IMG/VR virus record: IMGVR_UViG_2695420600_000009
Direction: 5' to 3' (one strand)
DNA length: 12,619 bases
Source of the DNA: a virus
Lineage: Duplodnaviria > Heunggongvirae > Uroviricota > Caudoviricetes
Of this stretch, positions 1 to 12,619 are shown piece by piece. The translations under genes and the position numbers were made by a program. The notes beneath the pieces are model-generated. The model searched no databases. It saw nothing but the letters and a program-made list of their open reading frames with translations, and had not been told where the DNA came from. Positions within the stretch are counted from its first letter, which is position 1. Each line of letters opens with the position of its first letter.

Positions 1-86
1 ATGCCAAACTGCGATCGATTCAGATGCCATTTTGCAATCAGCGCCAGAACAGCAGCTGACAGGCCGTATTTGATTTTTGCGCTCAT
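1..86 (-). CDS. probable endolysin (lysozyme R), N-terminal 28 codons only; gene continues past the left edge of the window
   Basis: Minus-strand ATG at 86..84 followed by MSAKIKYGLSAAVLALIAKWHLNRSQFG, a Gly/Ala/Leu-rich signal-anchor-like N-terminus. It lies directly after holin and DUF826 genes, as in the Qin-type lysis cassette essQ-ydfR-rrrQ. Absent from the ORF track because fewer than 60 codons are visible. Confidence 0.4.
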   Translation of the reverse strand, partial: MSAKIKYGLSAAVLALIAKWHLNRSQFG

Positions 87-141
87 GGATATTTATCAGG
101 ATGCTACCAATGAAAGATACTGGAAAGCCAACTGCAAAAAG

Positions 142-456
142 CTAACAACCCGTAATCGAGTTATCAGAACTGTTAATTTTTATGGTATACCGCGCCTCTG
201 AACAGGGGCGCGTTTCTGGCAACAGCTCGTCCCCTTCACATAACCCGGCAGCAACATCCAAGAAGACCTGTCTGATGCTCCTTCTGGCTGCTGCCTCATA
301 AAACTCCAGCGCGGCACCTTCAACACGGTCCAGCGAGATGTCCAGGTCAAAAATTTCACCGTCAAAGCGTTTTTTGTCCCGTAACGCTAAAGTTACCGTA
401 ACTTTATTCTCAAAATTGCGGATCCCTTTCACAATCAGTTCATAGTTTTGAGTCAT
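142..456 (-). CDS. DUF826 / YdfR-like small prophage protein
   Basis: 104-aa ORF. The N-terminal two thirds (MTQNYELIVKGIRNFENKVTVTLALRDKKRFDGEIFDLDISLDRVEGAALEFYEAAARRS) match my recollection of the YdfR/DUF826 family that sits between holin and lysozyme in Qin-like prophages. The SD (GGGGAGAG) lies in the last codons of the holin gene. The C-terminal third is not recognisable and contains a strong hairpin. Confidence 0.6.
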   Translation of the reverse strand: MTQNYELIVKGIRNFENKVTVTLALRDKKRFDGEIFDLDISLDRVEGAALEFYEAAARRSIRQVFLDVAAGLCEGDELLPETRPCSEARYTIKINSSDNSITGC

Positions 457-460
457 TGAA

Positions 461-676
461 TTACTCTCCCCGTGCAGCCTTACGACGGTCCTCTCTGATT
501 TTGAAATACAGGTTAGTCAGATATGTCAGCAGCCCAAACAGCAGACTCCCCAGCACGCCTATTGCCGCCCACTGAGACGGGGAAACCCTGTCCAGCAACT
601 GCAGGAACCAGTAGCCCGTTCCCACCGCTGACGTGGTGTATGACACACCTGTTGTGATTTTTTCCATCTGGTACAT
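461..676 (-). CDS. S: phage 21-type class II holin (S21-like), 71 aa with dual-start motif MYQM
   Basis: ORF track 461..754 trimmed to the internal ATG at 676. [71 protein letters not shown] closely resembles the phage 21 S holin as I recall it, including the two closely spaced Met starts, two TM segments and a charged C-terminus. SD GGGAGACGGGG directly upstream. Confidence 0.85.
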
Positions 677-711
677 ACCCCGTCTCCCGTTATCCGGAAG
701 CTGACAACAAT

Positions 712-741
712 AAAAAAAGCCACCAGTTAAGTACTGATGGC
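712..741 (-). terminator. intrinsic terminator-like hairpin between nanS-p and the holin gene
   Basis: On the minus strand GCCATCAG-TACTTAA-CTGGTGGC (8-bp stem, one mismatch) is followed by TTTTTTTATTG. Confidence 0.5.
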
Positions 742-826
742 TCTGATAACTCATGCAGGCATCTCAGACGACCCACTGACACTACCGGTGAGTTTAACGA
801 TACCTTCCATTTGGCTGGCTCACTTT

Positions 827-2680
827 TTATGATGATGCCGGTGCATTTATCTCCAGCACCAGACTTTCTATCTCAACGCCATACGCTGCATTTTTGGTAA
901 TATCCGTCAGCGTCAGCGCATTCAGCCCCAGTGTCAGACTGTCTTTTATGACCTGGAATGCCGGGCCAGCCACTCCATTCAGTTTCGGAGTAACCGTGGC
1001 ACTGCCGGCGGTGAACACCAGCTCCAGCGTCAGCCAGTCGTTACTGTAATTCCCGAACTCGCCCAACTTTGTGTTTCCTGCTTTCTTGTGATGCATCAGA
1101 TTCAGTTTGCCGTCTGTGGTCTGGGTGAAGAACGACATCAGGAACGGGTTACCAGTCCCGGTCATCGCCACGACGTCAGGTAACGCTACATCGGTATACA
1201 GATAAATTCCCAGACCGAACTGGTTGTTGGTCAGTGCGCCTGACAGTCGAAACTTACAGCTCAGTCTGCCACCCCGTGTCAGCAGGGAGACTGCGTCATC
1301 CACCGGGCGCGTCAGGGACCAGGCTTTATTGCTCTGCTTGGTGATCTTAAATACACCATCTGACAACTGAACTCCGCCATTCTTAATGCTCCAGCCCTGC
1401 GCAGCAGCGTCTCCGGCTGTCGGCAACAGGGAGATTGTGCGTATGGATGCATCTTCAGACGGCCCCGATGGCGTGTCGCCGCCGGGCGAGGGTTTGATTT
1501 CCGGTGCCTTACCACTAATGAAGGCTAAGGTGCGACCGGCTACGTTCAGAATAGCAGTTGCCATACGATCGGGAATAATGCCACGACGCGCCCATGAGCT
1601 GAAATGCGTCGGGCGATTTGATGATACCCAGTTTTTGTTCGTTCGGGATGCCGAACCGTAATAACCAGACCCGGCAATATCAGGATCTTCTGACGGGTTG
1701 TTTGTCGGTGTATTAACTCCGCTACCATCGGTCATAAAGGGAACAAAATAAATCTGCTGGGATTCTTTACCTTTATATGCACCATATACCACTTCATATT
1801 GCGTACCGTGTTCTTGTTTCCACGCGTATGTCGTGTCGCCACAAATCCAGGGGACTGATGCCGGACTTCCACCGTGACACTGCGCCGCCAGCCCGGCAAG
1901 GTCAGCACGGAACTGCTGTACCATTGCAAGAAATGCTGCTGGCTGCTGGGCGTAACTGGCATTCGTCATATCGAATTCCCCCTGCATCCAGCATATCGCC
2001 AGCAAAACGTTTTTCGGGTTTTTCTGCAATGCTGCCTTCGTGCGGAAAAGCAGATCCTGATATAACGGCTTACCCACTCCCCAGCGAGCCGAATCCTGAC
2101 TGGCCCCCGTGGACTCGCTGAATGTCCCCTCCGTGCCCTGGGTGAATGCCGAACCACCACAACAGCATGGTACCAGCAGGATCCCCGCATTATTAGGGAT
2201 ATACGGAAGCAGTTTTTTGGCAATATGTAAGCCCTGTCCGACACAGCCGTACTGCCCTTTGCTCAGGTCAGCCCGGGGATGGTTAATCGTACTCATATCC
2301 TGAACATCATGCAGACAATGGTCAGCAGGAATGATGTCGTTAAATACGCATACTTCACCACCGGGAGTCACTGTGTTACGACGGGCCAGTTGCTTAATGC
2401 GCGGATGGGGCGCATCGTATGAATCCGGAAGCGGAAGACCTTCACCGTAAGCCATGGCATTGGATTGCCCGGCCAGTACGATGACGTAGTACCACTCCGG
2501 CTCAGTTGCACCACTGACGACCACATCACCTTCTGCTGCAATCGCCTGCATCAGGGTATAAGGGGTTATGGCCACCGGACTACCAAACGGCTGCCAGCCC
2601 TCCTTCAGTTTTTGTGTCAGTCGTTTCGCAAGGTCTGACGGCGATGCCGCCCTGACCACGTCATAGTGTTTAAATGCCAT
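827..2680 (-). CDS. nanS: prophage sialate (9-O-acetyl-N-acetylneuraminate) O-acetylesterase, NanS-p / YjhS-like, with N-terminal DUF1737-like region
   Basis: 617-aa ORF with SD GGGAGGA upstream of the ATG at 2680. The N-terminus MAFKHYDVVRAASPSDLAKRL and the GQSN motif (VLAGQSNAMAYGEG) fit the SGNH/DUF303 esterase family that EHEC lambdoid prophages carry downstream of the stx position. Recognised from memory of the family, not searched. Confidence 0.8.
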   Translation of the reverse strand: MAFKHYDVVRAASPSDLAKRLTQKLKEGWQPFGSPVAITPYTLMQAIAAEGDVVVSGATEPEWYYVIVLAGQSNAMAYGEGLPLPDSYDAPHPRIKQLARRNTVTPGGEVCVFNDIIPADHCLHDVQDMSTINHPRADLSKGQYGCVGQGLHIAKKLLPYIPNNAGILLVPCCCGGSAFTQGTEGTFSESTGASQDSARWGVGKPLYQDLLFRTKAALQKNPKNVLLAICWMQGEFDMTNASYAQQPAAFLAMVQQFRADLAGLAAQCHGGSPASVPWICGDTTYAWKQEHGTQYEVVYGAYKGKESQQIYFVPFMTDGSGVNTPTNNPSEDPDIAGSGYYGSASRTNKNWVSSNRPTHFSSWARRGIIPDRMATAILNVAGRTLAFISGKAPEIKPSPGGDTPSGPSEDASIRTISLLPTAGDAAAQGWSIKNGGVQLSDGVFKITKQSNKAWSLTRPVDDAVSLLTRGGRLSCKFRLSGALTNNQFGLGIYLYTDVALPDVVAMTGTGNPFLMSFFTQTTDGKLNLMHHKKAGNTKLGEFGNYSNDWLTLELVFTAGSATVTPKLNGVAGPAFQVIKDSLTLGLNALTLTDITKNAAYGVEIESLVLEINAPASS

Positions 2681-2873
2681 GAATCCTCCCGGCCGGGATA
2701 ATATTGTGAGTAAAATAAGGAGCGGGCTGAAGTCCGGAAGTTACAGGACAATGGCAGAAGAGAGACGACAGCCCGCAATTCGAAAAAGACCGCGCAGTTG
2801 CGCAGAGTGATTACTATGGGGTATTATTCGCCAGCTGAAATATTACTTCACGTTTTATTGTTTATTCCTTGCC

Positions 2874-2902
2874 GCCCGCGTCTCCCAGCGCGGGCTTTTT
2901 TT
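2874..2902 (+). terminator. plus-strand intrinsic terminator-like hairpin inside repeat A (second copy at 4700..4728)
   Basis: GCCCGCG-TCTCCCAG-CGCGGGC followed by TTTTTTT on the plus strand. Confidence 0.5.
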
Positions 2903-2910
2903 GCCCACAA

Positions 2911-2931
2911 GAAAACCCCTCCGGAGAGGGG
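2911..2931 (-). terminator. minus-strand terminator-like hairpin T1 in repeat A (copy at 4737..4757; diverged sub-repeat version at 3397..3418)
   Basis: Minus strand CCCCTC-TCCG-GAGGGG followed by TTTTCTTG. Confidence 0.45.
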
Positions 2932-3179
2932 CTAAAGCCGCGTATCTGTATCATCATGCACATGGTGCCGGGTGCCTCCCGGTGAGTTCAGCCCGGTGCC
3001 ACTAAACCCGCGTCATTCTCGTTTTGATAATCAGAGATTATACCGTCACCAGTCGCCCCTCCGCTCAGGGGGATTCACCATGCGAAATTTTTTTAACAAA
3101 TGCCCAGTCTGACAGGCAACTGTCAACTTACTGAATTGTGAGCAACATAGCATTTAACGGGGAACCTGTTTTCTGCAGT

Positions 3180-3206
3180 AAAAAGGCCCACCGGAGCGGA
3201 TGGGCC
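3180..3206 (-). terminator. minus-strand terminator-like hairpin T2 in repeat A (copy at 5006..5032)
   Basis: Minus strand GGCCCA-TCCGCTCCGG-TGGGCC followed by TTTTTACTG. Confidence 0.45.
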
Positions 3207-3811
3207 TGGAAGGATAGCGGTCATGTGATGCCGGTTTCCCGGTAACTCAGCACCGGTATCTGAGTCAACGTTTTCTCTACTGGGTCATTTCCGATACGCC
3301 CTGCCTGCTGACAGGCTTTCATCACATCTGAAAATATAGCACCCTGACTGATACTGTAGTACCTAAGGTTCCAGAAACTGTGATGTATCCGGCACAGAAA
3401 AGCCCCTCCGGAGAGGGCTGGAGAGTGGCGCTATGTGCCATTGCATGATGCCGGGTGCCTCCCGGTGAATTCAGTACCAGCACCTGAATCCGCGATTATC
3501 CCATATACCTACTCGCTGATTGCCCCTCCGCACAGGGGGATTCACCATGCCAGTTTCTTTTAACAAACTCCCCGCAAACCAGACAACAGTCAACCGCCTG
3601 AATTGTGAAGTATTTAAAAATTTCTCCCGCTAACTGATACCCGGCTAACAGTCTGGCGTTTTCTTTTTCAGCAACGGGAAAGCAACAACCACCACACCCG
3701 CCACCAGCACACCGTCAGCCAGCACTGACATTATCCGGCTGCTGCAATGCCATTCACAAAAACAGTAAGCAATCACTTTTTACCGTAACAGGTGATAATC
3801 CAGATATGTAT

Positions 3812-4138
3812 CTACCCCAGATGAGTAATCCGAAGTTCATCCATACCACAGGTCCTGGCTATTCTGTTGTACTCCTGAACAAGAGCAAATAATTCTGAAT
3901 TAGCAACCATGAACTCATCGCAAACCCTCTGTATAGCATCACTATTCAGAATAATAACGTCTCTTCCCGAAAGACGATCAGGAGTACAGAACAAAACTGT
4001 CAAACGGCTGAAGGCCTTTGCTCGTGCTGCATTGACTATATCAATACGCTGCCTAAGGATGAAACACCCCGACGCCTCATCAATATTCACTCTACCCACA
4101 CCATATGAATGATAAATATTTAATGCTGAAAAAACCAT
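3812..4138 (-). CDS. hypothetical protein in AT-rich cargo segment (108 aa from first ATG; ORF track extends to a TTG at 4165)
   Basis: A 354-nt open frame in clearly AT-rich DNA, where stop codons are frequent, argues for real coding. It is on the late-transcribed strand. No convincing SD and no family I can recognise. An antisense 67-aa ORF (3909..4112) overlaps it. Confidence 0.35.
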   Translation of the reverse strand: MVFSALNIYHSYGVGRVNIDEASGCFILRQRIDIVNAARAKAFSRLTVLFCTPDRLSGRDVIILNSDAIQRVCDEFMVANSELFALVQEYNRIARTCGMDELRITHLG

Positions 4139-4275
4139 TAGACCGTATAACAAACACTCAATCAATACTTAACAGAACTTTTATTTTTGACAAACATAAA
4201 ATATTTTCAACAATATCCTGAGCCAGGTATATTTCAGTATAAGGCTCTGCCGGAAGGAATCTGGAAGAATGAATA

Positions 4276-4352
4276 TGGCGCGCTGTACTGGATTCGAACC
4301 AGTGACCGATTGCTTAGAAGGCAATTGCTCTGTCCGGCTGAGCTAACAACGC
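4276..4352 (-). tRNA. tRNA-Arg (anticodon TCT), cluster 1
   Basis: Reverse complement GCGTTGTTAGCTCAGCCGGACAGAGCAATTGCCTTCTAAGCAATCGGTCACTGGTTCGAATCCAGTACAGCGCGCCA folds as a 77-nt cloverleaf with anticodon loop CTTCTAA, T-loop TTCGAAT and encoded CCA. One G-U pair in the acceptor stem, where cluster 2 has A-U. Confidence 0.85.
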
Positions 4353-4365
4353 TGAATACCGATAA

Positions 4366-4445
4366 TGGACCGCCATCGGGGACCCGCCCCCGCACCAACA
4401 ACCCTGTTATCATGTCGTCTGCTCTTCCTGATAAGCTAATGGCGG
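4366..4445 (-). pseudogene. degenerate tRNA-like sequence (disrupted counterpart of tRNA-Arg TCG at 5572..5648)
   Basis: Acceptor stem, D-arm, 3' T-stem half and CCA match the cluster-2 tRNA. The anticodon arm, variable loop and 5' T-stem are replaced by AGACGACATGATAACAGGGTTGTTGGTGCGGGGGCGGGT, which does not form a cloverleaf. Confidence 0.6.
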
Positions 4446-4452
4446 TTTGTGA

Positions 4453-4528
4453 TGGTGGCCCTTGCTGGATTTGAACCAGCGACCTGGCGATTATGAGTCG
4501 CTCGCTCTCACCACTGAGCTAAAGGGCC
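4453..4528 (-). tRNA. tRNA with anticodon CAT (Ile2/lysidine-type or Met; ileZ-like), cluster 1
   Basis: Reverse complement GGCCCTTTAGCTCAGTGGTGAGAGCGAGCGACTCATAATCGCCAGGTCGCTGGTTCAAATCCAGCAAGGGCCACCA; 76-nt cloverleaf with anticodon loop CTCATAA. Stx-type phages carry ileZ-argN-argO at this position. Confidence 0.85.
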
Positions 4529-4567
4529 GGGAGCAGAATAATAACGGTCCGTAATTAATTCCGCAAT

Positions 4568-4681
4568 AAAAAACCCGCTCGGCGGCGGGTTGTAGAAACT
4601 CTTCTAACGTCAGGCATAAAACGCCCATAGTTATGACGAATTTACCACAGATTCCGGAAAAATCAACCTAGTTACCTTTTT
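4568..4681 (-). repeat. repeat B copy 1: duplicated Q 3' tail plus terminator module (remnant; second copy 7299..7413 is attached to the intact Q gene)
   Basis: About 114 bp identical, bar one or two bases, to 7299..7413. It encodes the last ~17 codons of Q (KVTRLIFPESVVNSS stop) followed by the terminator hairpin at 4568..4591, with no upstream Q coding sequence. An N at 4682 marks the junction with repeat A copy 2. Confidence 0.8.
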
Positions 4682-4682
4682 N

Positions 4683-5450
4683 ATTGTTTATTCCTTGCCG
4701 CCCGCGTCTCCCAGCGCGGGCTTTTTTTGCCCACAAGAAAACCCCTCCGGAGAGGGGCTAAAGCCGCGTATCTGTATCATCATGCACATGGTGCCGGGTG
4801 CCTCCCGGTGAGTTCAGCCCGGTGCCACTAAACCCGCGTCATTCTCGTTTTGATAATCAGAGATTATACCGTCACCAGTCGCCCCTCCGCTCAGGGGGAT
4901 TCACCATGCGAAATTTTTTTAACAAATGCCCAGTCTGACAGGCAACTGTCAACTTACTGAATTGTGAGCAACATAGCATTTAACGGGGAACCTGTTTTCT
5001 GCAGTAAAAAGGCCCACCGGAGCGGATGGGCCTGGAAGGATAGCGGTCATGTGATGCCGGTTTCCCGGTAACTCAGCACCGGTATCTGAGTCAACGTTTT
5101 CTCTACTGGGTCATTTCCGATACGCCCTGCCTGCTGACAGGCTTTCATCACATCTGAAAATATAGCACCCTGACTGATACTGTAGTACCTAAGGTTCCAG
5201 AAACTGTGATGTATCCGGCACAGAAAAGCCCCTCCGGAGAGGGCTGGAGAGTGGCGCTATGTGCCATTGCATGATGCCGGGTGCCTCCCGGTGAATTCAG
5301 TACCAGCACCTGAATCCGCGATTATCCCATATACCTACTCGCTGATTGCCCCTCCGCACAGGGGGATTCACCATGCCAGTTTCTTTTAACAAACTCCCCG
5401 CAAAACAGACAACTGTCAACCGTCTGAATTGTGAGACATTTAAAAAAAAG
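4683..5450. repeat. repeat A copy 2 (see 2853..3620)
   Basis: Near-identical to copy 1 over ~770 bp. ORF-track entries 5297..5530 and 5346..5552 in this region run into the tRNA genes and are rejected. Confidence 0.9.
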
Positions 5451-5481
5451 GCCCGCAAAAGCGAGCCAGGGAAAATAAGTG

Positions 5482-5558
5482 TGGCGCGTTGTACTGGATT
5501 CGAACCAGTGACCGATTGCTTAGAAGGCAATTGCTCTGTCCGGCTGAGCTAACAACGC
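5482..5558 (-). tRNA. tRNA-Arg (anticodon TCT), cluster 2
   Basis: Same 77-nt sequence as 4276..4352 except an A-U instead of G-U pair in the acceptor stem. Confidence 0.9.
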
Positions 5559-5571
5559 ATGATGCAGATAA

Positions 5572-5648
5572 TGGACCGCCATCGGGGACTTGAACCCCGC
5601 GCAGCCAGCTTCGAAGGCTGGCGCTCTTTCCTGATGAGCTAATGGCGG
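5572..5648 (-). tRNA. tRNA-Arg (anticodon TCG by my reading of the loop CTTCGAA), cluster 2
   Basis: Reverse complement CCGCCATTAGCTCATCAGGAAAGAGCGCCAGCCTTCGAAGCTGGCTGCGCGGGGTTCAAGTCCCCGATGGCGGTCCA; 7-bp acceptor stem, D-stem GCTC/GAGC, anticodon stem CCAGC/GCTGG, T-loop TTCAAGT, CCA end. Confidence 0.75.
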
Positions 5649-5655
5649 TATGTGA

Positions 5656-5731
5656 TGGTGGCCCTTGCTGGATTTGAACCAGCGACCTGGCGATTATGAG
5701 TCGCTCGCTCTCACCACTGAGCTAAAGGGCC
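5656..5731 (-). tRNA. tRNA with anticodon CAT (Ile2/Met; ileZ-like), cluster 2
   Basis: Identical to 4453..4528. The ~35 bp upstream of it are also conserved between the two clusters. Confidence 0.9.
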
Positions 5732-5771
5732 GGGAGCCGCATAATAACGACGCGTAATTAATTCTTCAATA

Positions 5772-6830
5772 TCATCCGTTCTGGCTGACTAAATCCTGTA
5801 CTTCCCGAACCGTCTGCTCAAAACGTTCAGTCTCCAGCTCAACGCCAATTGCACGACGCCCGAGCGCCAGTGCCGCTTTCACTGTCGAACCCAACCCCAT
5901 GAAAAAATCTGCAATCAGGTCACCCGGACGACTGCTAGCGCTGATTATCTGCTGCAGCATTTCTGCCGGTTTTTCGCACGGATGTTTCCCGGGATAGAAC
6001 TGCACCGGTTTATGCGTCCACACATCGGTATACGGCACCTGCACCGTCACGCCAAAATACCGCCGCAGATGTTTATATTCACTCAGCAGCTCCGCATACT
6101 GCCGGTTCAGTGAGGTATACGTATCCACCAGCTGGTGGTGGAGCTTTTCCAGTTCACCACGCCGATGCTTCTCTTCTGCCACCCGGGCAAACAGCGCCTG
6201 TAATTTCAGATAATCGCTTTCATTCGGCAACTGCCACTGACCGGCACTGAACCAGTGCGACACCATGTTTTTCTTTCCTGTGGCATCTGCAATCTGTTTT
6301 GCCGTTATCCCCAGGGCAGCTCGCGCATCACGAAAGTAAGAAATCAGCGGGGCCATCACATGCTGTTTCAGTGCACTGCCCTTCGCCGCATACCCGGCAT
6401 CTTTCGGACGATACGGCCCCTGATAATGTTCCGCGAACAGAATGCGCTCTGTGGCGGGGAAATACGCCCGCAGGCTTTCCTTGTTGCATCCGTTCCAGCG
6501 TCCGGACGGCTTCGCCCAGATAATATGGTTCAGCACACTGAAGCGTTCACGCATCATGATTTCGATATCAGATGCCAGGCGATGACCACAGAACAGGTAA
6601 AGACTTCCGGCAGGTTTCAGCACCCGCCAGAACTGCGCCAGACACTGGTCCAGCCACTTCAGGTAATCATCGTCGCCCTTCCACTGGTTATCCCAGCCCT
6701 CAGGCTTCACTTTAAAGTACGGCGGGTCCGTGACTATCAGGTCAACAGAATTTTCGGGTAACGACCGGATAAATTCCAGGCAGTCGGCGTTGATTAACTC
6801 ACAACTGGATATTTTTACAGTATTAAGCAT
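5772..6830 (-). CDS. DNA methyltransferase, beta-class amino-MTase (N6-adenine or N4-cytosine), orphan (no adjacent endonuclease gene)
   Basis: 352-aa ORF with catalytic motif DPPY near the N-terminus (LIVTDPPYF) and a SAM-binding FxGxG-like motif near the C-terminus (DFFMGLGST). This motif order is typical of beta-class MTases. Sits between Q and the tRNA cluster. Confidence 0.85.
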   Translation of the reverse strand: MLNTVKISSCELINADCLEFIRSLPENSVDLIVTDPPYFKVKPEGWDNQWKGDDDYLKWLDQCLAQFWRVLKPAGSLYLFCGHRLASDIEIMMRERFSVLNHIIWAKPSGRWNGCNKESLRAYFPATERILFAEHYQGPYRPKDAGYAAKGSALKQHVMAPLISYFRDARAALGITAKQIADATGKKNMVSHWFSAGQWQLPNESDYLKLQALFARVAEEKHRRGELEKLHHQLVDTYTSLNRQYAELLSEYKHLRRYFGVTVQVPYTDVWTHKPVQFYPGKHPCEKPAEMLQQIISASSRPGDLIADFFMGLGSTVKAALALGRRAIGVELETERFEQTVREVQDLVSQNG

Positions 6831-6965
6831 GGATCATTAAGCCTGTCTCTGATAGGCTCATTCTGCTTTTGCGCAAAGCAGTGGGCCTGAGGTTTGCTTG
6901 TGAACCCAACGCATGAGCAGATGGCTGGTGGGTGCCCCTAACACCCACCAGCCGCCCATTTACCA

Positions 6966-6994
6966 CAAATAAAAAAGCCTTCACTGCGGAAGGC
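6966..6994 (-). terminator. intrinsic terminator-like hairpin at the 3' end of the small winged-helix gene
   Basis: Minus strand GCCTTC-CGCAGT-GAAGGC followed by TTTTTTATTTG; the stem overlaps the stop codon at 6981..6983. Confidence 0.55.
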
Positions 6995-7178
6995 GTCTGT
7001 AACAACCGAACTGATAGTCTGCCAGACCCGCCATAACCAGCTGGGTCAGTATTAACTGGCAGCGTTCGCGTGAAAGGTAAGTATTCTGCGCTATCTCCCC
7101 GACTGTCGCCGGTTCGGTAACGCTTAATTCATTAAACACCACTCTGGCGGTTTCTGTCATATCCTGCTGTTTTAGCAT
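6981..7178 (-). CDS. small winged-helix-like DNA-binding protein (65 aa), hypothetical
   Basis: Good SD (AAGGA) 7 nt upstream of the ATG at 7178. The segment TVGEIAQNTYLSRERCQLILTQLVMAGL has the helix-turn-helix plus recognition-helix pattern of wHTH regulators. Family assignment is inference. Confidence 0.55.
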   Translation of the reverse strand: MLKQQDMTETARVVFNELSVTEPATVGEIAQNTYLSRERCQLILTQLVMAGLADYQFGCYRRLPQ

Positions 7179-7298
7179 GTCTTTTCCTTTTCCGGTTAAC
7201 GTGACACACCAATAACTCTTGTCGAAAAAGCCAGCAAGCTGAAAGACAGGTATTCACCGCCACCAGCGCGTTTACTGTACTGACGCGATTTCAGTCAT

Positions 7299-7322
7299 AA
7301 AAAACCCGCTCGGCGGCGGGTT
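7299..7322 (-). terminator. intrinsic terminator immediately downstream of Q (candidate tR')
   Basis: Minus strand CCCGC-CGCCGA-GCGGG followed by TTTTTTAT, ~40 nt after the Q stop codon. Duplicated at 4568..4591. Confidence 0.6.
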
Positions 7323-7361
7323 GTAGAAACTCTTCTAACGTCAGGCATAAAACGCCCATCG

Positions 7362-8216
7362 TTATGACGAATTTACCACAGATTCCGGAAAAATCAACCT
7401 AGTTACCTTTTTTAACTGCCGCTCAGCCCATGCTTCTTCAATATCAAACCGGGTCACCAGCGCATCATAGAATTTCTTAACTGTTTTTTCCCATGACGCG
7501 CGTGTTATCTGGTTTGTCACCTCGCATATAGCATTAAATGCCTCCGTTGATGGTAGTCTTTCATAGCCACGACCACCACAACGCTGGCAGTCTCTGATAA
7601 CAGGCATACCACGTTTTACCGACTCTTCACGATGAATGGCGACACCACGCCCACGGCAATCCTTACAGGCGGTGGAAACCTCACCCTTTCCGCCACACTC
7701 CGGACAGGCAACTTTTACCACCTCCCTGACTTTTTTCCATTCTTCCCAGTAAGACGGATACACACCTTTCGTACACTTTGCCCATACCGGCGGCTTACCA
7801 TCCGGATACTGGATCTTGTTTGTAAAAACCTCGCTTTCAATAAATTTTTTTCCGTGACAGCAGGGGCACTGTTTTTTGCTCGCCGCGCTACGGGCATAAT
7901 CTTCAAACGCATACGAAGCCATAATACGCATCACTGCCGGTTTTATTTCTGCCGGGAGTTTTCTTAACGCCGCCACGCGATCACACCGACTGAGTGCATA
8001 TTCTGTCAGCAATTCTGTTGCCCGCTCTCTGTCATTCATACTAATGCCCATTTTCCCAAGGAACGCAGAAACCCCCATCTCAGCCCGATTCTGTGTCATG
8101 CCCTGCGCGGCCATCACATCAGTGATACTCAGCGCATCTTTCGACGTTGAGGCCGATGCATCAGTCAGGCCGGGGGATTTTGGGGAGTAGTATTTCGGTA
8201 AATCTTCCAGTTTCAT
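7362..8216 (-). CDS. Q: Q-family late-gene antiterminator with four CxxCxG(xG) zinc-finger-like motifs
   Basis: 284-aa ORF in the canonical position: downstream of rusA with ATGA start/stop overlap, upstream of terminator, tRNAs and lysis genes. The N-terminal region resembles Qin-type Q (quuQ-like) proteins as I recall them. Cys motifs CPCCHGKK, CPECGGKG, CKDCRGRG, CQRCGGRG. Confidence 0.7.
   Translation of the reverse strand: MKLEDLPKYYSPKSPGLTDASASTSKDALSITDVMAAQGMTQNRAEMGVSAFLGKMGISMNDRERATELLTEYALSRCDRVAALRKLPAEIKPAVMRIMASYAFEDYARSAASKKQCPCCHGKKFIESEVFTNKIQYPDGKPPVWAKCTKGVYPSYWEEWKKVREVVKVACPECGGKGEVSTACKDCRGRGVAIHREESVKRGMPVIRDCQRCGGRGYERLPSTEAFNAICEVTNQITRASWEKTVKKFYDALVTRFDIEEAWAERQLKKVTRLIFPESVVNSS
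7370..7397 (-). promoter_or_regulatory. candidate late promoter pR' overlapping the last codons of Q
   Basis: Minus strand TTGATT (-35), 16-bp spacer, TAAATT (-10), located just upstream of the terminator at 7299..7322. Hexamer match only; no experimental support. Same motifs in repeat B copy 1 at 4639..4666. Confidence 0.3.
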
Positions 8217-8593
8217 TTTTTGACCTGCTCTTCATGCATTATGGGGTAAATCTTCACCCCCAGACGTCCACCAGATACTGGCTGACCACGAACGATATTG
8301 ATTTCATCAAACTGCTCATCGTCCATTAGCAACCCCGCATGCGTCAGCGCATCCAGCGGCGCTTTCAGAATATTGTCCAGGTCACGGCGGCGCTTATCCG
8401 GTGGTTCTGCAATAATTTTTATTGCCAACCTTCCGGACAGGCTTAATTTCAGCCGCTGCTGGCGAACAATAAGCGCCACTGCCCGGCGATAACGCTCCCC
8501 GGCTTTTGATACAAAATATGTGCTGCCACGACGACGCCAGTAAGTGTTCACCGTCGGCGGGTAAGGTAAAACAAATTCTATGCGCTCGGTCAT
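8213..8593 (-). CDS. rusA: RusA-family Holliday junction resolvase
   Basis: 126-aa ORF with the family signature region PDKRRRDLDNILKAPLDALTHAGLLMDDEQ and N-terminal LPYPPTVNTYWR. Stop overlaps the Q start (ATGA); start abuts the stop of the upstream gene. Confidence 0.85.
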   Translation of the reverse strand: MTERIEFVLPYPPTVNTYWRRRGSTYFVSKAGERYRRAVALIVRQQRLKLSLSGRLAIKIIAEPPDKRRRDLDNILKAPLDALTHAGLLMDDEQFDEINIVRGQPVSGGRLGVKIYPIMHEEQVKK

Positions 8594-9652
8594 TTATGCT
8601 TTCCACTTCAGAACACCCGAATTTCTCGCGTGCATTAAAAAACGAATCAGCAACAACAGCTGACTGCCGTGTTTCTCTTCAAAATCTTTTACTCCGGCAT
8701 GTAGTTCGTTACGGCATTTACGGCATAACGGAATAACAAACAAATCATCAGCCTTTGTTCCCATCCCTCCCAGTCCATGACCAATGATGTGATGCGGATC
8801 ATCTGCCTGATTGCCACACGTCATGCATTTCTGCGTTTTTACCCAGCGCGTGTATACAGGCATCTCTTCCCGTTGTGATTTCTGGCGCTGGAGATACTGA
8901 GCCGGTGACTCCGGATCAACGGCAATGCTGACCACCGTCTTTTCCTGTGGTGGGTTCTGTTGCTGGTGGACGTGAGGCAGTAACGCAATATTTTTTGTGC
9001 GCTGCTTCAGTATGCTGGTGGCTGTCTGCTCTCCCGGTATGATGTCGCTTTCACTGTACACAGAGCGAATTTTTTCCGCACGCAACCCCAGCGAACGACG
9101 TAATACCGCTTCCGGTAGCGCGTCCGCCACCTGATTGCGGACCGCCCACCAGGATAATTCAGCCAGAGATAATTCACGCTCCTGCGTACCGCTTATTGCG
9201 TGACCGATGACGTCAATCATCCATGCTGACAGGTTTTGATGAGCAAGTTGCTCGAGTGATTCGGATGTCTGGTCACGCAGCTGGTTGTCGCAGTGCCAGC
9301 ACAACACCATTGCGCCGGTACCATAACGGTGAATGACGGTTTCGCTGTGATGATAATCGCCGTGTGGCCACTGGCAGGATTTAATATGGCGCAACAGCCA
9401 GTCAGACAATGCACCAGCACCACCAGCAGCACGAATCACCCGTGCGTTACTGAAAAACGGCAGCAATGTTTTGTCTTCCACCAGCGGCTGGCGAGCGGCA
9501 GGAACGACCCCGGACGGCAGATTACGCATGCTTTTTGGTTCCGGCTCCACCAGTATTCTGCCGTTATGGAATGCTGACATTGATTCACGGCCTGGCTTAA
9601 CGATAACCAGACCGAGTTCCGGTACCAGAACAGGTCGAAGTAATACCCGCAC
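8594..9652 (-). CDS. DUF968 / YdfU-like prophage protein with C-terminal HNH-like Cys/His cluster
   Basis: 352-aa ORF. GTG start at 9652 is preceded by GGAGG with 4-nt spacing; an alternative ATG lies at 9580. C-terminal CMTCGNQADDPHHIIGH...CRKCRNELH resembles an HNH/zinc-finger nuclease motif. DUF968 assignment is from gene position and size by analogy with Qin ydfU. Confidence 0.55.
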   Translation of the reverse strand: MRVLLRPVLVPELGLVIVKPGRESMSAFHNGRILVEPEPKSMRNLPSGVVPAARQPLVEDKTLLPFFSNARVIRAAGGAGALSDWLLRHIKSCQWPHGDYHHSETVIHRYGTGAMVLCWHCDNQLRDQTSESLEQLAHQNLSAWMIDVIGHAISGTQERELSLAELSWWAVRNQVADALPEAVLRRSLGLRAEKIRSVYSESDIIPGEQTATSILKQRTKNIALLPHVHQQQNPPQEKTVVSIAVDPESPAQYLQRQKSQREEMPVYTRWVKTQKCMTCGNQADDPHHIIGHGLGGMGTKADDLFVIPLCRKCRNELHAGVKDFEEKHGSQLLLLIRFLMHARNSGVLKWKA

Positions 9653-9653
9653 A

Positions 9654-9932
9654 TTACCTCCAGATCCGTTGCTGGAATGTGCGGGACGGACGCGTTGGCC
9701 GTTCGGAGTAAGGGAGCCTGACGGAGATTATCCAGTGACGGTAGTCGAGGCTAAGGGCTTTTTTAACCTCGCATCCGCGCCTGCGGTAACACTGAATGAG
9801 CCATTCGGCCTGTTCTTCAGTGCATGGGGGATGCTGGTACCAATCAGATTTAAATGCGTGAGAGCGCCGCCCGTGCCTGCTGGCAAAGACGGCTGAATTA
9901 TCAGAATTGTGTAGTCTGGAATTTTGCGCCAT
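9654..9932 (-). CDS. hypothetical prophage protein (92 aa)
   Basis: ATG at 9932 with SD GGAGAAAG. The same RBS-plus-start context is duplicated at 10628. No family recognised. Confidence 0.45.
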   Translation of the reverse strand: MAQNSRLHNSDNSAVFASRHGRRSHAFKSDWYQHPPCTEEQAEWLIQCYRRRGCEVKKALSLDYRHWIISVRLPYSERPTRPSRTFQQRIWR

Positions 9933-9998
9933 CGGCTTTCTCCGGTGGCACAGTGTTACTCAACAGGGGTTCAGCCCTGCGCTGAATTGTAGATGAAT

Positions 9999-10259
9999 TC
10001 ACTCATCTTCAAAAGCAGAAAAACCAGCCTTAATCCCAGCTTCTTTCAGAGACGGCAACGATGTGACAAATTCATTTGCACGCGAAATAAAACCATCCGT
10101 CACAAGCCCATCCACAAAATGAATTAACGCAGCTCCACTCTTCCTTTGTTGAGACTGTAAACATTTAATACGGCAGTGGCTGACAATAGCGCCATTCTCA
10201 ACGCGCACAGTATAGAGGCCATCTTCACTAAAAATTTCACGTAATTCTTCGATTTTCAT
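9999..10259 (-). CDS. hypothetical protein, paralog 1 of a tandemly duplicated gene (86 aa from ATG; track shows a TTG one codon upstream)
   Basis: MKIEELREIFSEDGLYTVRVENGAIVSHCRIKCLQSQQRKSGA is ~85% identical over the first ~75 residues to the ORF at 10667..10954. SD GGAAGGA. Family not recognised. Confidence 0.6.
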   Translation of the reverse strand: MKIEELREIFSEDGLYTVRVENGAIVSHCRIKCLQSQQRKSGAALIHFVDGLVTDGFISRANEFVTSLPSLKEAGIKAGFSAFEDE

Positions 10260-10343
10260 CAACAGAATCCTTCCAGATAAATAGCACTCCCCTGTTCGGG
10301 GTCCATCCCTCTTCTCCCTGCGCGCTACTTAAGTGAGTCGATT

Positions 10344-10374
10344 NNNNNNNNNNNNNNNNNNNNNNNNNNNNNNN
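10344..10374. other. assembly gap (31 N)
   Basis: Run of N in the sequence. It interrupts the gene starting at 10628 and the upstream region of paralog 1. Confidence 1.
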
Positions 10375-10628
10375 CACAGGTAATCAACGAAACCGGACAC
10401 CAGTTTTCGTTCGCGAGGCGTGATCGCCCCACCGACCGGAGTCCAGTAATCGAAACCCAGTTGCAGGAGTTTGAAAAAACGCTTGTGGAATGCGTAGTTA
10501 CACACACGCTTAAAGTCTGCGTGTATCCACTCACCTATTTTGATTTGATGCAGAAAATCGCAACTCTCCGGCGTCGCCGGGAGAAGTAATCCGGAAGAGG
10601 TTTGTTTGACCAGTTGTATATGTGCCAT
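10375..10628 (-). CDS. hypothetical prophage protein, 3' end lost in the gap
   Basis: ATG at 10628 in the same duplicated RBS context as 9932; MAHIQLVKQTSSGLLLPATPESCDFLHQIKIGEWIHADFKRVCNYAFHKRFFKLLQLGFDYWTPVGGAITPRERKLVSGFVDYL, then N. The track ORF 10329..10670 reads through the Ns. Confidence 0.45.
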
Positions 10629-10666
10629 CGGCTTTCTCCGGTGGCACGGTGTTACACAGCAGGAGT

Positions 10667-10954
10667 TCAATCCTGCTCAAGATTGTAGATGAGTTTATTC
10701 TTCAGCAAAAGCAGAAAACCAGCCTTAAAACCAATCTCTTTCAAAACCCGTAATGATGTGACAAATTCGTCCTCACGCAAAATAAAACCGTCCGTCAGAA
10801 GTCCATTACAAAAATAAAATAACACAGCACCGCTCTTCCTTTGTTGAGATTGCAAACATCTAATGCGGCAATGGCTGACAATCGCTCCATTCTCAACGCG
10901 CACAGCATAGAGGCCATTTTCACTAAAAATTTCACGCAATTCTTCGATTTTCAT
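10667..10954 (-). CDS. hypothetical protein, paralog 2 of the tandemly duplicated gene (95 aa)
   Basis: ATG at 10954 with SD GGAAGGA. Upstream on the minus strand is TTGATT-16 bp-TAGAAT, a plausible sigma-70 promoter. The C-terminus diverges from paralog 1 after KAGF. Confidence 0.6.
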   Translation of the reverse strand: MKIEELREIFSENGLYAVRVENGAIVSHCRIRCLQSQQRKSGAVLFYFCNGLLTDGFILREDEFVTSLRVLKEIGFKAGFLLLLKNKLIYNLEQD

Positions 10955-11077
10955 CTTCAGAATCCTTCCAGATAAATAGCTCTCCCCTGTTCGGGGTCCA
11001 TCCCTCTTCTCCCTGCGCGCTACTTAAGTGAGTCGATTCTATCTGCGAAGGTGCGCGAATCAAATTCACCGGAAATA

Positions 11078-11126
11078 AACAACAAAAAACCCGCCGAAAC
11101 GCTGAGAGATCACAGCGATGGGCGGG
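11078..11126 (-). terminator. terminator-like stem-loop after the truncated hok copy
   Basis: Minus strand CCCGCC ... GGCGGG stem enclosing an inner CGCTG/CAGCG stem, followed by TTTTTTGTTGTTTATTT. Confidence 0.45.
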
Positions 11127-11203
11127 TTAAGTGCGGGTGCGTTGAGGATGCCTGACACATCAGAGGTGGGCGGGGATGGGATCAGCTCCCCGCCCGGTCA
11201 CTC

Positions 11204-11303
11204 TTACTTCCTGGATTCGTAGTCTACGAAGACAGCGACCTCCGTCTGGCCGGTTCGGATTCGTACCTCACAGAGGTCTTTCCTCGTTACCAGTGCCGTC
11301 ACT
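11204..11303 (-). pseudogene. truncated hok copy (3' ~33 codons plus 3' UTR), tandem to the intact gene
   Basis: Minus strand reads ...TRKDLCEVRIRTGQTEVAVFVDYESRK stop, homologous to the C-terminal half of the hok ORF at 11421..11576. The copy begins at an N (11304) directly after the intact gene's terminator. The 3' UTR (11127..11203) is homologous to 11353..11420. Confidence 0.7.
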
Positions 11304-11319
11304 NAACTTCAAACGCGTT

Positions 11320-11351
11320 GAAAATAAAAACAAAAACCCGCCGAAGCGGGT
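11320..11351 (-). terminator. intrinsic terminator of the hok transcript
   Basis: Minus strand CCCGC-TTCGG-GCGGG followed by TTTTTGTTTTTATTTTC, ~70-100 nt downstream of the hok stop. Confidence 0.6.
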
Positions 11352-11420
11352 TAAGTGTGGGTGCATTGAGGATGCCTGACCCATCAGAGGTGGCGAGGGA
11401 TTTCTCCCCCGCCTGGTCTC

Positions 11421-11576
11421 TTACTCCTCAGGTTCGTAAGCTGTGAAGACAGCGACCTCCGTCTGGCCGGTTCGAATTCGTACCTCGCAGAGGTCTTTCC
11501 TCGTTACCAGTGCCGTCACTATGACGGTTAAACAGATGACGATCAGGGCGATTAACATCGCCTTTTGCTGCTTCAT
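11421..11576 (-). CDS. hokD: Hok/Gef-family type I toxin (51 aa), HokD/RelF-like
   Basis: MKQQKAMLIALIVICLTVIVTALVTRKDLCEVRIRTGQTEVAVFTAYEPEE matches the HokD (RelF) sequence as I recall it. SD GGAGAAGCAGG upstream. The track ORF (11421..11633) also contains an in-frame upstream ATG with its own SD (mok-like leader). No relBE genes precede it here. Confidence 0.9.
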   Translation of the reverse strand: MKQQKAMLIALIVICLTVIVTALVTRKDLCEVRIRTGQTEVAVFTAYEPEE

Positions 11577-11867
11577 AGCCTGCTTCTCCTTGCCTTTCGG
11601 CACGTAAGAGGCTAACCTAGATTTGCCGTTCATAGATTGAGCCTCAGATTAATGTTAAGCGTCTTGCCGGACGCGTAATGTTAACTGGGGCTTTTCTCTA
11701 TCTGCCTTTTGGTGTTCATGCCTGAGACAGATAGCCTCAAGCACCCGCTGCAATTCTACTTAACTCTCCTTTTCCCGCAAACCGTTTTTATCCCCAGCGG
11801 CAAATCGAATACACCACCAGCGCCACCGCCATCGCAATTCCTACCGTTGTTAATGCTTCAGGCCAGG

Positions 11868-12212
11868 TCATCGTAAAATATCCTCCACGCTTATCAGTCC
11901 GTTCCGCTCCAGATAACTCATCGCCTTATCCGGTAATTTGCAGTCTGGCTTCGCTTTTCTCAGTTGCCAGGTTAACTGCTTTACCAGCATGGTTAACTCA
12001 TCGACCAGACGCTGATATCCCACTGGTTTGTATTCATGCAATTTACCGGCTGGCTCTGCTGCCAGCGATACCAGTGCGATTTCCAGAACAGCAATATCCA
12101 TCTTATATGTGCGGATGATGTCATGGTCGATTGTGCCCGGTATGCACAGTCTCTGTGCTTCAATAGTCTCCTCTGCGTGAGCTATTAACTGCTCTCTGGT
12201 AAAAGTCGTCAT
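11868..12212 (-). CDS. hypothetical protein (114 aa)
   Basis: Start overlaps the stop of the upstream 55-aa gene (ATGA). Shares the motif IAL-x-SL-x-AEP with that gene. Family not recognised. Confidence 0.5.
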
Positions 12213-12376
12213 GCCGTAGCCCCTTCTTGATATTTTTCAAACCAGAACACAACCGGCTCTGCTTCCAGCGATGCCAGCGCAATCCGTGCCAGTTCCATTT
12301 GTTCACCACGGGTAAGCCCGTTTTCAAGCGGGTTTTTAATGAACAATTCAATACGTTCTTTGGTAATAGTGGTCAT
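12209..12376 (-). CDS. hypothetical small protein (55 aa), not in the ORF track (<60 aa)
   Basis: Strong SD AAGGAG 7 nt upstream of the ATG at 12376. Translation [55 protein letters not shown]. Stop overlaps the next start. Confidence 0.5.
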
Positions 12377-12386
12377 GTGTTACTCC

Positions 12387-12617
12387 TTAACCCGCAGTGC
12401 TTTCAACTGATGAGGGGAACAAAATCTTTTCATCAAACCCTGCATTCATATCATGAACAGCAACACACCAATCCATCGACGAACGATTATCAAGAGCCTC
12501 CATGATTTCATCCATGCGGCGTAGGTCATACAGGTAAATGCTTTTATCGCCAATGGTGTAAAAGCCAATTTTTTTCGGTGATGGATGAGGTGTACTGGCA
12601 ATAGCGGACACTACCAT
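12387..12617 (-). CDS. hypothetical protein (76 aa if the ATG at 12617 is the true start; may be partial)
   Basis: ORF begins 2 nt from the right edge of the window, so the real N-terminus cannot be judged. Its stop TAA is embedded in the SD of the next gene (TAAGGAG). Confidence 0.4.
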   Translation of the reverse strand: MVVSAIASTPHPSPKKIGFYTIGDKSIYLYDLRRMDEIMEALDNRSSMDWCVAVHDMNAGFDEKILFPSSVESTAG

Positions 12618-12619
12618 TT

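Follow-up and report, generated by a model that had tools for sequence, protein, structure and literature searches.

Read from right to left, the window, a stretch of 12,619 nucleotides from the IMG/VR virus record IMGVR_UViG_2695420600_000009, has the gene order of the early-to-late regulatory part of a lambdoid prophage. All genes of interest lie on the minus strand, as do the promoters, leaders, hexamers, and hairpins described below. The order starts with small ORFs, a hok/mok/sok locus (11421-11746; matches to PF01848 for hok and to RF01794 for sok), the partial 3′ end of a second hok, an ORF of 95 amino acids, and a DUF1367 gene (10375-10628; PF07105 with E=1e-38, phrog_319; IrsA, NinB/Orf-like by PHROG) that is cut off after 84 codons by a contig end and has a full length of 199 amino acids in finished genomes. 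Beyond a run of 31 Ns, an 84-nt leader is followed by an ORF of 86 amino acids and an ORF of 92 amino acids (9654-9932; phrog_1212), the latter a hypothetical protein according to RefSeq genomes. The left end comprises genes for a DUF968 protein, RusA, Q, and a DNA methylase, tRNAs with STnc100 elements, and a 617-amino-acid esterase-like protein.

The 86- and 95-amino-acid ORFs (9999-10259 and 10667-10954, respectively) each lie in a module of about 420 nt, and these two modules (9925-10343 and 10621-11040) align with a mean column identity of 89%; in their leaders, only three of about 84 aligned positions differ. Apart from the ribosome-binding site and a few opening codons, the genes 3′ of the modules are unrelated, being the 92-amino-acid ORF on the left and the DUF1367/IrsA-type gene on the right. 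An earlier, sequence-only reading had interpreted this arrangement as a tandem duplication of a gene module encoding paralogs of a family that it left unnamed. Its description of the modules, the ORFs, and the genes following them is borne out by the pairwise alignment, as are the two intergenic hairpin sequences to which it drew attention, CAGGG-GTTCAG-CCCTG (9964-9979) and CAGGA-GTTCAA-TCCTG (10660-10675).

The family is Rem (Pfam PF27490). The 86-amino-acid protein shares 73% sequence identity with Rem of Escherichia coli K-12 (b1561; 61 of 83 residues), matches phrog_340, and has 83 homologues, all of which carry a precomputed match to PF27490, the model labelled Rem; our local copy of Pfam and NCBIfam contained no model for Rem or for the 92-amino-acid ORF. 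Phage records annotate the ORF as rem, the order hok-rem-(92 aa)-DUF968 is conserved, and the position of the genes in a lambdoid prophage, 3′ of hok and 5′ of DUF968 or DUF1367 genes, is that of the Rem family. In a scan of genome contigs, the family was confined to Escherichia and Shigella (8 loci). K-12 Rem was discovered through its similarity to GfoA and FsoA, and it relieves repression of the dicBF promoter (dicBp) by DicA 165-fold; the signal inducing Rem was stated to be an open question in the same study (Ragunathan et al. 2023, PMC10448788). By homology, the Rem alleles in the window would likewise act on a cognate DicA/RacR-type repressor.

The difference in length between the two ORFs, which the sequence-only reading gave correctly, does not reflect a divergence of paralogs. 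The 95-amino-acid allele differs by a one-nucleotide deletion in a T5 run (GGTTTTTCT to GGTTTTCT), which shifts the frame and moves the stop codon, a UGA, into the loop of the hairpin following the gene, so that the C-terminus changes from ...KAGFSAFAEE to ...KAGFLLLLKNKLIYNLEQD. Protein P0036 is the same allele in its unshifted form, with the normal ...KAGFSAFAEE end. The frameshifted allele is common, with 4,517 blocks listing it in the index of the protein collection.

The window contains exactly three runs of Ns (4682, 10344-10374, and 11304), and every one of them coincides with the edge of a family of direct repeats. The 31-N scaffold gap at 10344-10374 separates a left contig (contig C) from the next (contig B) at the point where repeat family D2 ends, and the single N at 11304, which joins contig B to contig A, is abutted by repeat family D8 (11201-11303 = 11418-20). 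Some scaffolders mark a predicted overlap of contigs with a single "n". Contig B, 929 bp in length (10375-11303), fills exactly the space between these two N runs; it carries the 3′ part of hok, a terminator, the promoter and leader of rem, the 95-amino-acid form of rem itself, and 84 codons from the start of DUF1367. A blastn search found it to be identical over 929 of 929 positions (100.000%) to a Rac-like prophage at about 0.78 Mb (775132-787419; positions 5652-6580 of that locus) in HE616528.1, which we take to be the genome of Shigella sonnei 53G, and the match breaks off exactly at both N runs. It is also 99.9% identical, in one block, to a Rac-like prophage of E. coli FDAARGOS_944, where the gene order is hokD, rem (95 aa), DUF1367 (199 aa), DUF1364, and Q, without a second copy thereafter, and to which the sequences neighboring contig B in the window are only 86-90% identical.

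These neighboring sequences match a different prophage of HE616528.1, located at about 2.09 Mb. Contig A (11305-12619), with its small ORFs, the hok/mok/sok locus, the terminator of hok, and the left rem promoter's -35 box (TTGAAG, 11312-11307), is identical to it over 1315 of 1315 positions (locus positions 4135-2821) and is the true upstream neighbor of the left module. In blastn searches, window positions 4678-10334, in contig C, and 1-3620 were 99.7% and 99.8% identical to the same prophage. Near the third N (4682), the sequence at 3621-4677 is foreign, a second artefact of like kind, and positions 2853-3620 are repeated at 4678-5445. Window position 10334 corresponds to position 4165 of the 2.09-Mb locus, and the last 9 nt of contig C do not align; positions 10334-10343 carry the variant typical of contig B, so the left contig has a chimeric end, located in the leader repeat that the prophages share. 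The flanks of contig B are only 29-30 nt apart in the finished genome (TTAGATGGTGCCGGAATAGAATCAAAAATA) and carry a single rem; these roughly 30 nt are what the window lacks of the left rem promoter. Exact-protein look-ups placed the 617-amino-acid protein and the 86-amino-acid Rem at 2,088,272-2,110,125 in HE616528.1 and the 95-amino-acid protein at 775,132-787,419, and the same two separate loci were found in CP032523.1. Finished genomes from this lineage thus carry the two modules, read as a tandem by the sequence-only reading, in separate prophages some 1.3 Mb from each other.

When contigs A and C were spliced without B, the resulting query aligned as a single block, with 1140 nt matched to 1159 nt of the record, and at least 80% of it was found in one place in 2,745 complete E. 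coli records; the unspliced query of 2101 nt collapsed onto about 1160 nt in the best complete genomes. Apart from the window itself, the two-copy arrangement is absent from more than 240 related loci: the window alone had two rem matches among 113 loci searched with tblastn, none of 120 IMG/VR stretches had a second leader core, and no two-copy locus was among the 16 places returned by exact-protein look-ups, with complete genomes being single-copy.

A genuine event, in which recombination between prophages would have placed a hok′-rem′-DUF1367′ fragment 5′ of the resident rem, is conceivable given that the prophages share stretches of a length suited to recombination, including 57 identical nucleotides in the leader, and that S. 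sonnei genomes are heavily rearranged by insertion sequences, which interrupt DUF1367 in several cases. We nevertheless consider it very improbable, since both junctions are N runs, the inserted piece is 100% identical to a distant prophage and ends exactly at these Ns, the flanks lie next to each other in finished genomes from this lineage, no tandem copy occurs in the more than 240 loci or the best complete-genome matches, and an independent overlap artefact, the second in the window, is seen at the third N. What was found at the gap is essentially a repeat-linked assembly fault, with the N runs at the repeat boundaries, an outcome that the sequence-only reading had named as counting against its duplication. 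The window would then be part of a short-read scaffold of a genome of the Shigella sonnei/E. coli type. Two stretches, the hok 3′ end and the rem leader, recur almost identically in two of its prophages; owing to this, the 929-bp contig (10375-11303), which belongs to the Rac-like one, would have been placed between two contigs of the other, likewise lambdoid, giving rise to the apparent duplication. The placement of Ns at repeat boundaries, the overlap of paralogous contigs, and the one chimeric contig end are features also of short-read scaffolding artefacts at prophage repeats in general, although the contig break at 10375 falls inside DUF1367 and is a counterpoint to such a reading. The tandem duplication is not real, and its components are already-known Rem cassettes. 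Overall, we are highly confident that the apparent tandem results from a misplaced Rac-like contig and that each module is one known Rem cassette with hairpins kept by compensatory change. Users of the scaffold would miscount copies of rem, hok, tRNA genes, and STnc100 elements, and would infer a truncated DUF1367 gene.

Each cassette has elements 5′ of rem that recur elsewhere. The promoter-like sequence TTGATT-N16-TAGAAT that the sequence-only reading had reported before the right copy is present at 11063-11036 and is of the sigma-70 type; its -10 box is invariant. TAGAAT and the leader are kept in at least five unrelated upstream contexts, each with a -35 box at a spacing of 16-18 nt. A LexA box (CTG-N10-CAG) was found in none of 235 instances between -200 and +120, and no dinI ORF is present in the leader. 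The leader (10260-10343 in the left copy, with B-type sequence in its outermost part, 10334-10343; 10955-11035 in the right copy) consists of a purine-rich core, a CCCC-loop-GGGG hairpin, and the rem ribosome-binding site. The core, CTTAAGTAGCGCGCAGGGAGAAGAGGGATGG (also given as AGGGAGAAGAGGGAUGG), is nearly invariant, and a 25-nt piece of it occurs without a mismatch in at least 120 viral contigs. It stands 5′ of three types of small ORF: Rem; T2, a 57-amino-acid type that shares only its first 23 residues with Rem and matches phrog_340; and T3, a 55-amino-acid type (phrog_34610).

The leader is under selection, and no consistent fold was found for it. Its minimum-free-energy fold, with an outer stem UAAGUAGCGC/GUGCUAUUUA and a start-codon hairpin, has a z-score of -1.47, lacks covariation, and contains many broken pairs, and was rejected. 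RNAalifold predicted a structure of about -10 kcal/mol with 98.5% of cells paired and two covarying pairs, figures that are partly circular as the structure was derived from the same sequences, and this structure is lost in T3 leaders. The loop of the CCCC-loop-GGGG hairpin is free in both sequence and length (GAACA, AAACA, UUAA, UGAA, UUCA, and others), which rules out a boxB- or nut-like reading of its GAACA form. Neither the leader nor the spacer that follows rem matched Rfam at the gathering threshold, and a permissive scan of 10560-11110 returned chance-level matches only (E ~1-3).

Within the core, an AUG with a good Shine-Dalgarno sequence, AGGGAG, is invariant, and in most loci it opens an ORF of 15 codons whose stop overlaps the rem AUG. 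The conserved leader could on this basis encode a functional peptide (MDPEQGSAIYLEGFC), with its translation coupled to that of rem through the UGAUG overlap. The behavior of this upstream ORF makes such a function unlikely. Indels in the hairpin loop change its frame, its length ranges from 3 to 25 codons (3 in K-12-type loci and 8 in Rac-type loci), and it is either joined to rem in the same frame, as in at least 13 loci, or runs into rem out of frame. Given this variability in length and frame, the leader peptide is not conserved; at most, the act of translation initiation at the upstream AUG could matter. The invariant core itself most likely controls rem expression after transcription has started.

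On the other side of rem, the start of translation of the next gene lies in a spacer of 66 nt, whose layout is common to all three cassette types: a TAYAAT hexamer, 6-12 nt, a first hairpin (hairpin 1), 7-11 nt, and a second hairpin (hairpin 2). The hexamer, TACAAT in the window, lies just 3′ of the rem stop in the left copy (9986-9991), is found at 10682-10687 in the right copy, and resembles a -10 box; kept as TAYAAT or TATACT at 6-12 nt 5′ of hairpin 1 in all three cassette types, it is a candidate element by conservation. Where a -35 box would be expected, only three of six positions match, and an internal promoter at the hexamer remains an idea.

Hairpin 1 (9963-9980 on the left, RNA G-CAGGG [CUGAAC] CCCUG-U; 10658-10677 on the right, RNA AGCAGGA [UUGAAC] UCCUGCU) combines a conserved loop, YUGAAC, with a stem that covaries. 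The stems in Rem loci are CAGGG/CCCTG and CAGGA/TCCTG, the pair noted in the sequence-only reading, as well as CGGGG/TCCCG and TAGGG/CCCTG, flanked by a G.U, G-C, or A-U pair. The suggestion that the stem is selected, made from these two copies, holds across Rem loci, with 95.6% of cells paired and two-sided changes at three of six pairs; the loop-closing pair is broken in three variants. In the Rem loci alone, 13-17 of 500 shuffles do as well, a result that is suggestive only. In T2 and T3 cassettes, the stem is replaced by GCCAG/CTGGC or GTCAG/CTGAC around CCUGAACAA, and the UGAAC loop is kept. At both sites (9964-9979 and 10660-10675) the scan for intrinsic terminators was negative; UUGAGUAAC, AACCUACA, or GUCUGUC comes after the stem, and in the absence of a U tract hairpin 1 is not an intrinsic terminator. 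It probably helps control the cassette, via a loop-specific partner or as a structure at a 5′ or 3′ end.

The covariation of hairpin 2 is clearer and better supported than that of hairpin 1. This hairpin (9925-9952 on the left, RNA UGUGCCA-C-CGG[AGAAAG]CCG-A-UGGCGCA; 10622-10647 on the right, RNA GUGCCA-C-CGG[AGAAAG]CCG-A-UGGCAC) is the predicted minimum-free-energy fold in every cassette type and contains both the Shine-Dalgarno sequence (GGAG in the left copy) and the AUG (9932-9930 and 10628-10626, respectively) of the next gene. Its T2 form is GCGCCAUUG[GAGACAG]CAAUGGCGC, and its T3 form, with a GUG start codon, is GCACCAUUAC[GAGGAUG]GUAGUGGUGC. The outer six base pairs are paired in 15 of 15 variants, one position alternating among U.G, U-A, and C-G and another between G-C and A-U, and the inner stem changes from CGG:CCG to UUG:CAA to UUAC:GUAG with pairing retained. 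One of these inner-stem swaps replaces Ala with Val at codon 2 and an AUG start with GUG, and leaves the pairing intact. None of 500 shuffles equalled the real alignment in pairing, in covariation score, or in the count of cells changed on both sides, statistics that are inflated because the sequences of the RNA elements are all closely related ones from Escherichia and Shigella; in slid-register controls, only 15-56% of cells were paired. The G.U wobbles occur on the sense strand only, which argues for an RNA structure over a DNA palindrome. That two unrelated genes share a ribosome-binding site and first codons is explained by these bases forming the 3′ arm of hairpin 2.

Could these compensatory changes reflect chance, or the hitch-hiking of two haplotypes, with the spacer being a recombination linker of mosaic modules that has no RNA function? 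The close relatedness of all loci and the modest statistics of hairpin 1 are in keeping with this, as is the mosaic joint directly after the conserved block; moreover, some correlated differences, such as T/C at the base of hairpin 2 together with G/A in codon 2, which do not pair with each other, are plain linkage. Such an origin is, however, difficult to reconcile with the T2 and T3 stems of hairpin 1, which share no sequence with the Rem stem and yet pair around the same loop and which themselves swap between GCCAG/CTGGC and GTCAG/CTGAC, or with the three forms of the hairpin 2 inner stem, in which pairing is kept throughout, and the drop to 15-56% paired cells in slid registers. We therefore regard it as quite unlikely, and favor hairpins that are maintained as RNA structures. 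At the sequence level, hairpin 2 has the make-up of a start-site-sequestering hairpin, the Shine-Dalgarno sequence and the start codon being enclosed in a compensatorily kept stem-loop; as it pairs both of these, it most likely restrains translation initiation of the next gene.

In sum, each module is one copy of a cassette of a known kind, in which rem is preceded by a sigma-70 promoter of its own and an approximately 80-nt leader and followed by the 66-nt spacer bearing the translation start of the next gene. Its product would be a small antirepressor that inactivates a prophage repressor of the DicA/RacR type, an activity for which there is experimental evidence in the case of K-12 Rem and which is assigned here by homology. 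The leader core would control rem after transcription initiation, the sense RNA of the spacer would fold into the two hairpins kept by compensatory change, and hairpin 2 would limit translation of the next gene. More tentatively, the leader core, the GC hairpin, and the two-hairpin spacer might form a previously undescribed cis-regulatory RNA unit that replaces LexA/dinI control in Escherichia and Shigella prophages and times the expression of Rem-family antirepressors and a downstream irsA-type gene, a proposal to which we give rather less than even credence. If it were true, this unit would be the missing input for the induction of prophages of the DicA/RacR type. As candidates for the control of Rem, the cassettes offer a promoter free of a LexA box, an invariant leader core common to three types of antirepressor-like ORF, and two covarying hairpins. 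For the regulation of rem, this is a modest lead and not a discovery.

Among the closest known systems is the rem locus of the cryptic prophage Qin of K-12 (b1561), which encodes a homologous protein of family PF27490, is placed after hokD and before ydfU (DUF968), and also has the promoter, leader core, spacer, and hairpins. The alleles in the window are distinct from that of K-12, and one is frameshifted at its C-terminus; the cognate repressor would be encoded outside the window.

Post-transcriptional control of phage antirepressors has precedents in ant of phage P22, which is controlled by the sar antisense RNA, and in phage P1, with its c4 RNA and the translational coupling of icd and ant. 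By analogy with these systems, the antirepressor gene here stands behind a leader or a small upstream ORF, its unregulated expression would be expected to induce the prophage, and the overlap between the stop codon of the upstream ORF and the start codon of rem may resemble the icd-ant coupling of P1. The resemblance is one of analogy only: a search of rem and the leader revealed no antisense promoter, the peptide encoded by the upstream ORF is not conserved, and there is no sequence similarity to the P22 and P1 systems.

In the Gifsy prophages of Salmonella, an operon under LexA control has its antirepressor gene flanked by dinI and irsA (Lemire et al. 2011, PMC3121763). The right module resembles these dinI-gfoA/gftA-irsA operons in having a small antirepressor gene directly 5′ of irsA (DUF1367), and the cassettes share with them a preceding terminator, a promoter of their own, and a position between the replication genes and Q. 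In contrast to the Gifsy operons, the rem cassettes have neither a LexA box (235 instances) nor dinI as their first gene; the place that dinI would take is occupied by the 80-nt leader with its invariant core.

The leader core of rem, the Rem antirepressor gene, is not confined to that gene. Among the IMG/VR stretches that carry the core (L130–L249), two further types of small ORF are preceded by an exact copy of it, for example in L132, L151 and L159. One type, of 57 aa, has its first 23 residues in common with Rem and diverges thereafter; the other, of 55 aa, begins MNDKELIAALSVPG... These two types probably represent alternative antirepressor specificities under one shared control region. 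The phrog_340 family matches the 57-aa type once, over its whole length, and matches the 86-aa Rem (window 9999–10259) in two stretches; a domain of about 55 aa may be partly repeated within Rem.

Every cassette type retains a −10-like hexamer, TAYAAT, directly behind the small ORF's stop codon (window 9986–9991 and 10682–10687), and hairpin 1 of the spacer starts 6–12 nt downstream of it. The hexamer could be part of a candidate internal promoter giving a transcript that starts with hairpin 1; the −35 matches for this promoter are poor, at 3/6. Upstream of the leader, rem promoters in the hok context display an inverted repeat, TTCCGG-N6-CCGGAA, within the −35/−10 spacer (for example in L056, L021 and K-12 MG1655, L113), with the variants TTCTGG...CCGGAA and TTTTGG...CCAGAA. 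It could serve as an operator. Promoters of the other upstream contexts carry no inverted repeat of this type, and the window lacks the corresponding hok-context promoter region, which falls in the gap.

The left contig ends in AATCGACTCA (window 10334–10343), where the finished genome (HE616528.1) has AATCAAAAATA; AATCGACTCA is the variant of the other prophage, the Rac-like one at ~0.78 Mb. This stretch is a chimeric contig end, located at the leader repeat that the two prophages share. In several genomes of the S. sonnei type, finished or draft (L123, L124, L127 and L129), IS elements interrupt the DUF1367/irsA gene that follows the 95-aa rem, at insertion sites that differ; none of the sites in these four loci matches the contig break at window 10375.

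A second scaffolding artefact occupies window 2853–5445, with an N at 4682. Positions 3621–4677, which comprise the 3′ end of Q, two tRNAs and a 117-aa ORF, are foreign to the prophage matching the remainder of the window, and 4678–5445 repeat 2853–3620. Because of this artefact, the doubled STnc100 matches and part of the tRNA matches are inflated.

K-12 MG1655 has an intact 92-aa ORF (MARNAKYYNSDNSPVLACTHGRYSHAFK...) between rem and ydfU (L113 2806–3151), homologous to the 92-aa gene of the window. It is without annotation in NC_000913.3 and is a hypothetical protein in other RefSeq genomes.
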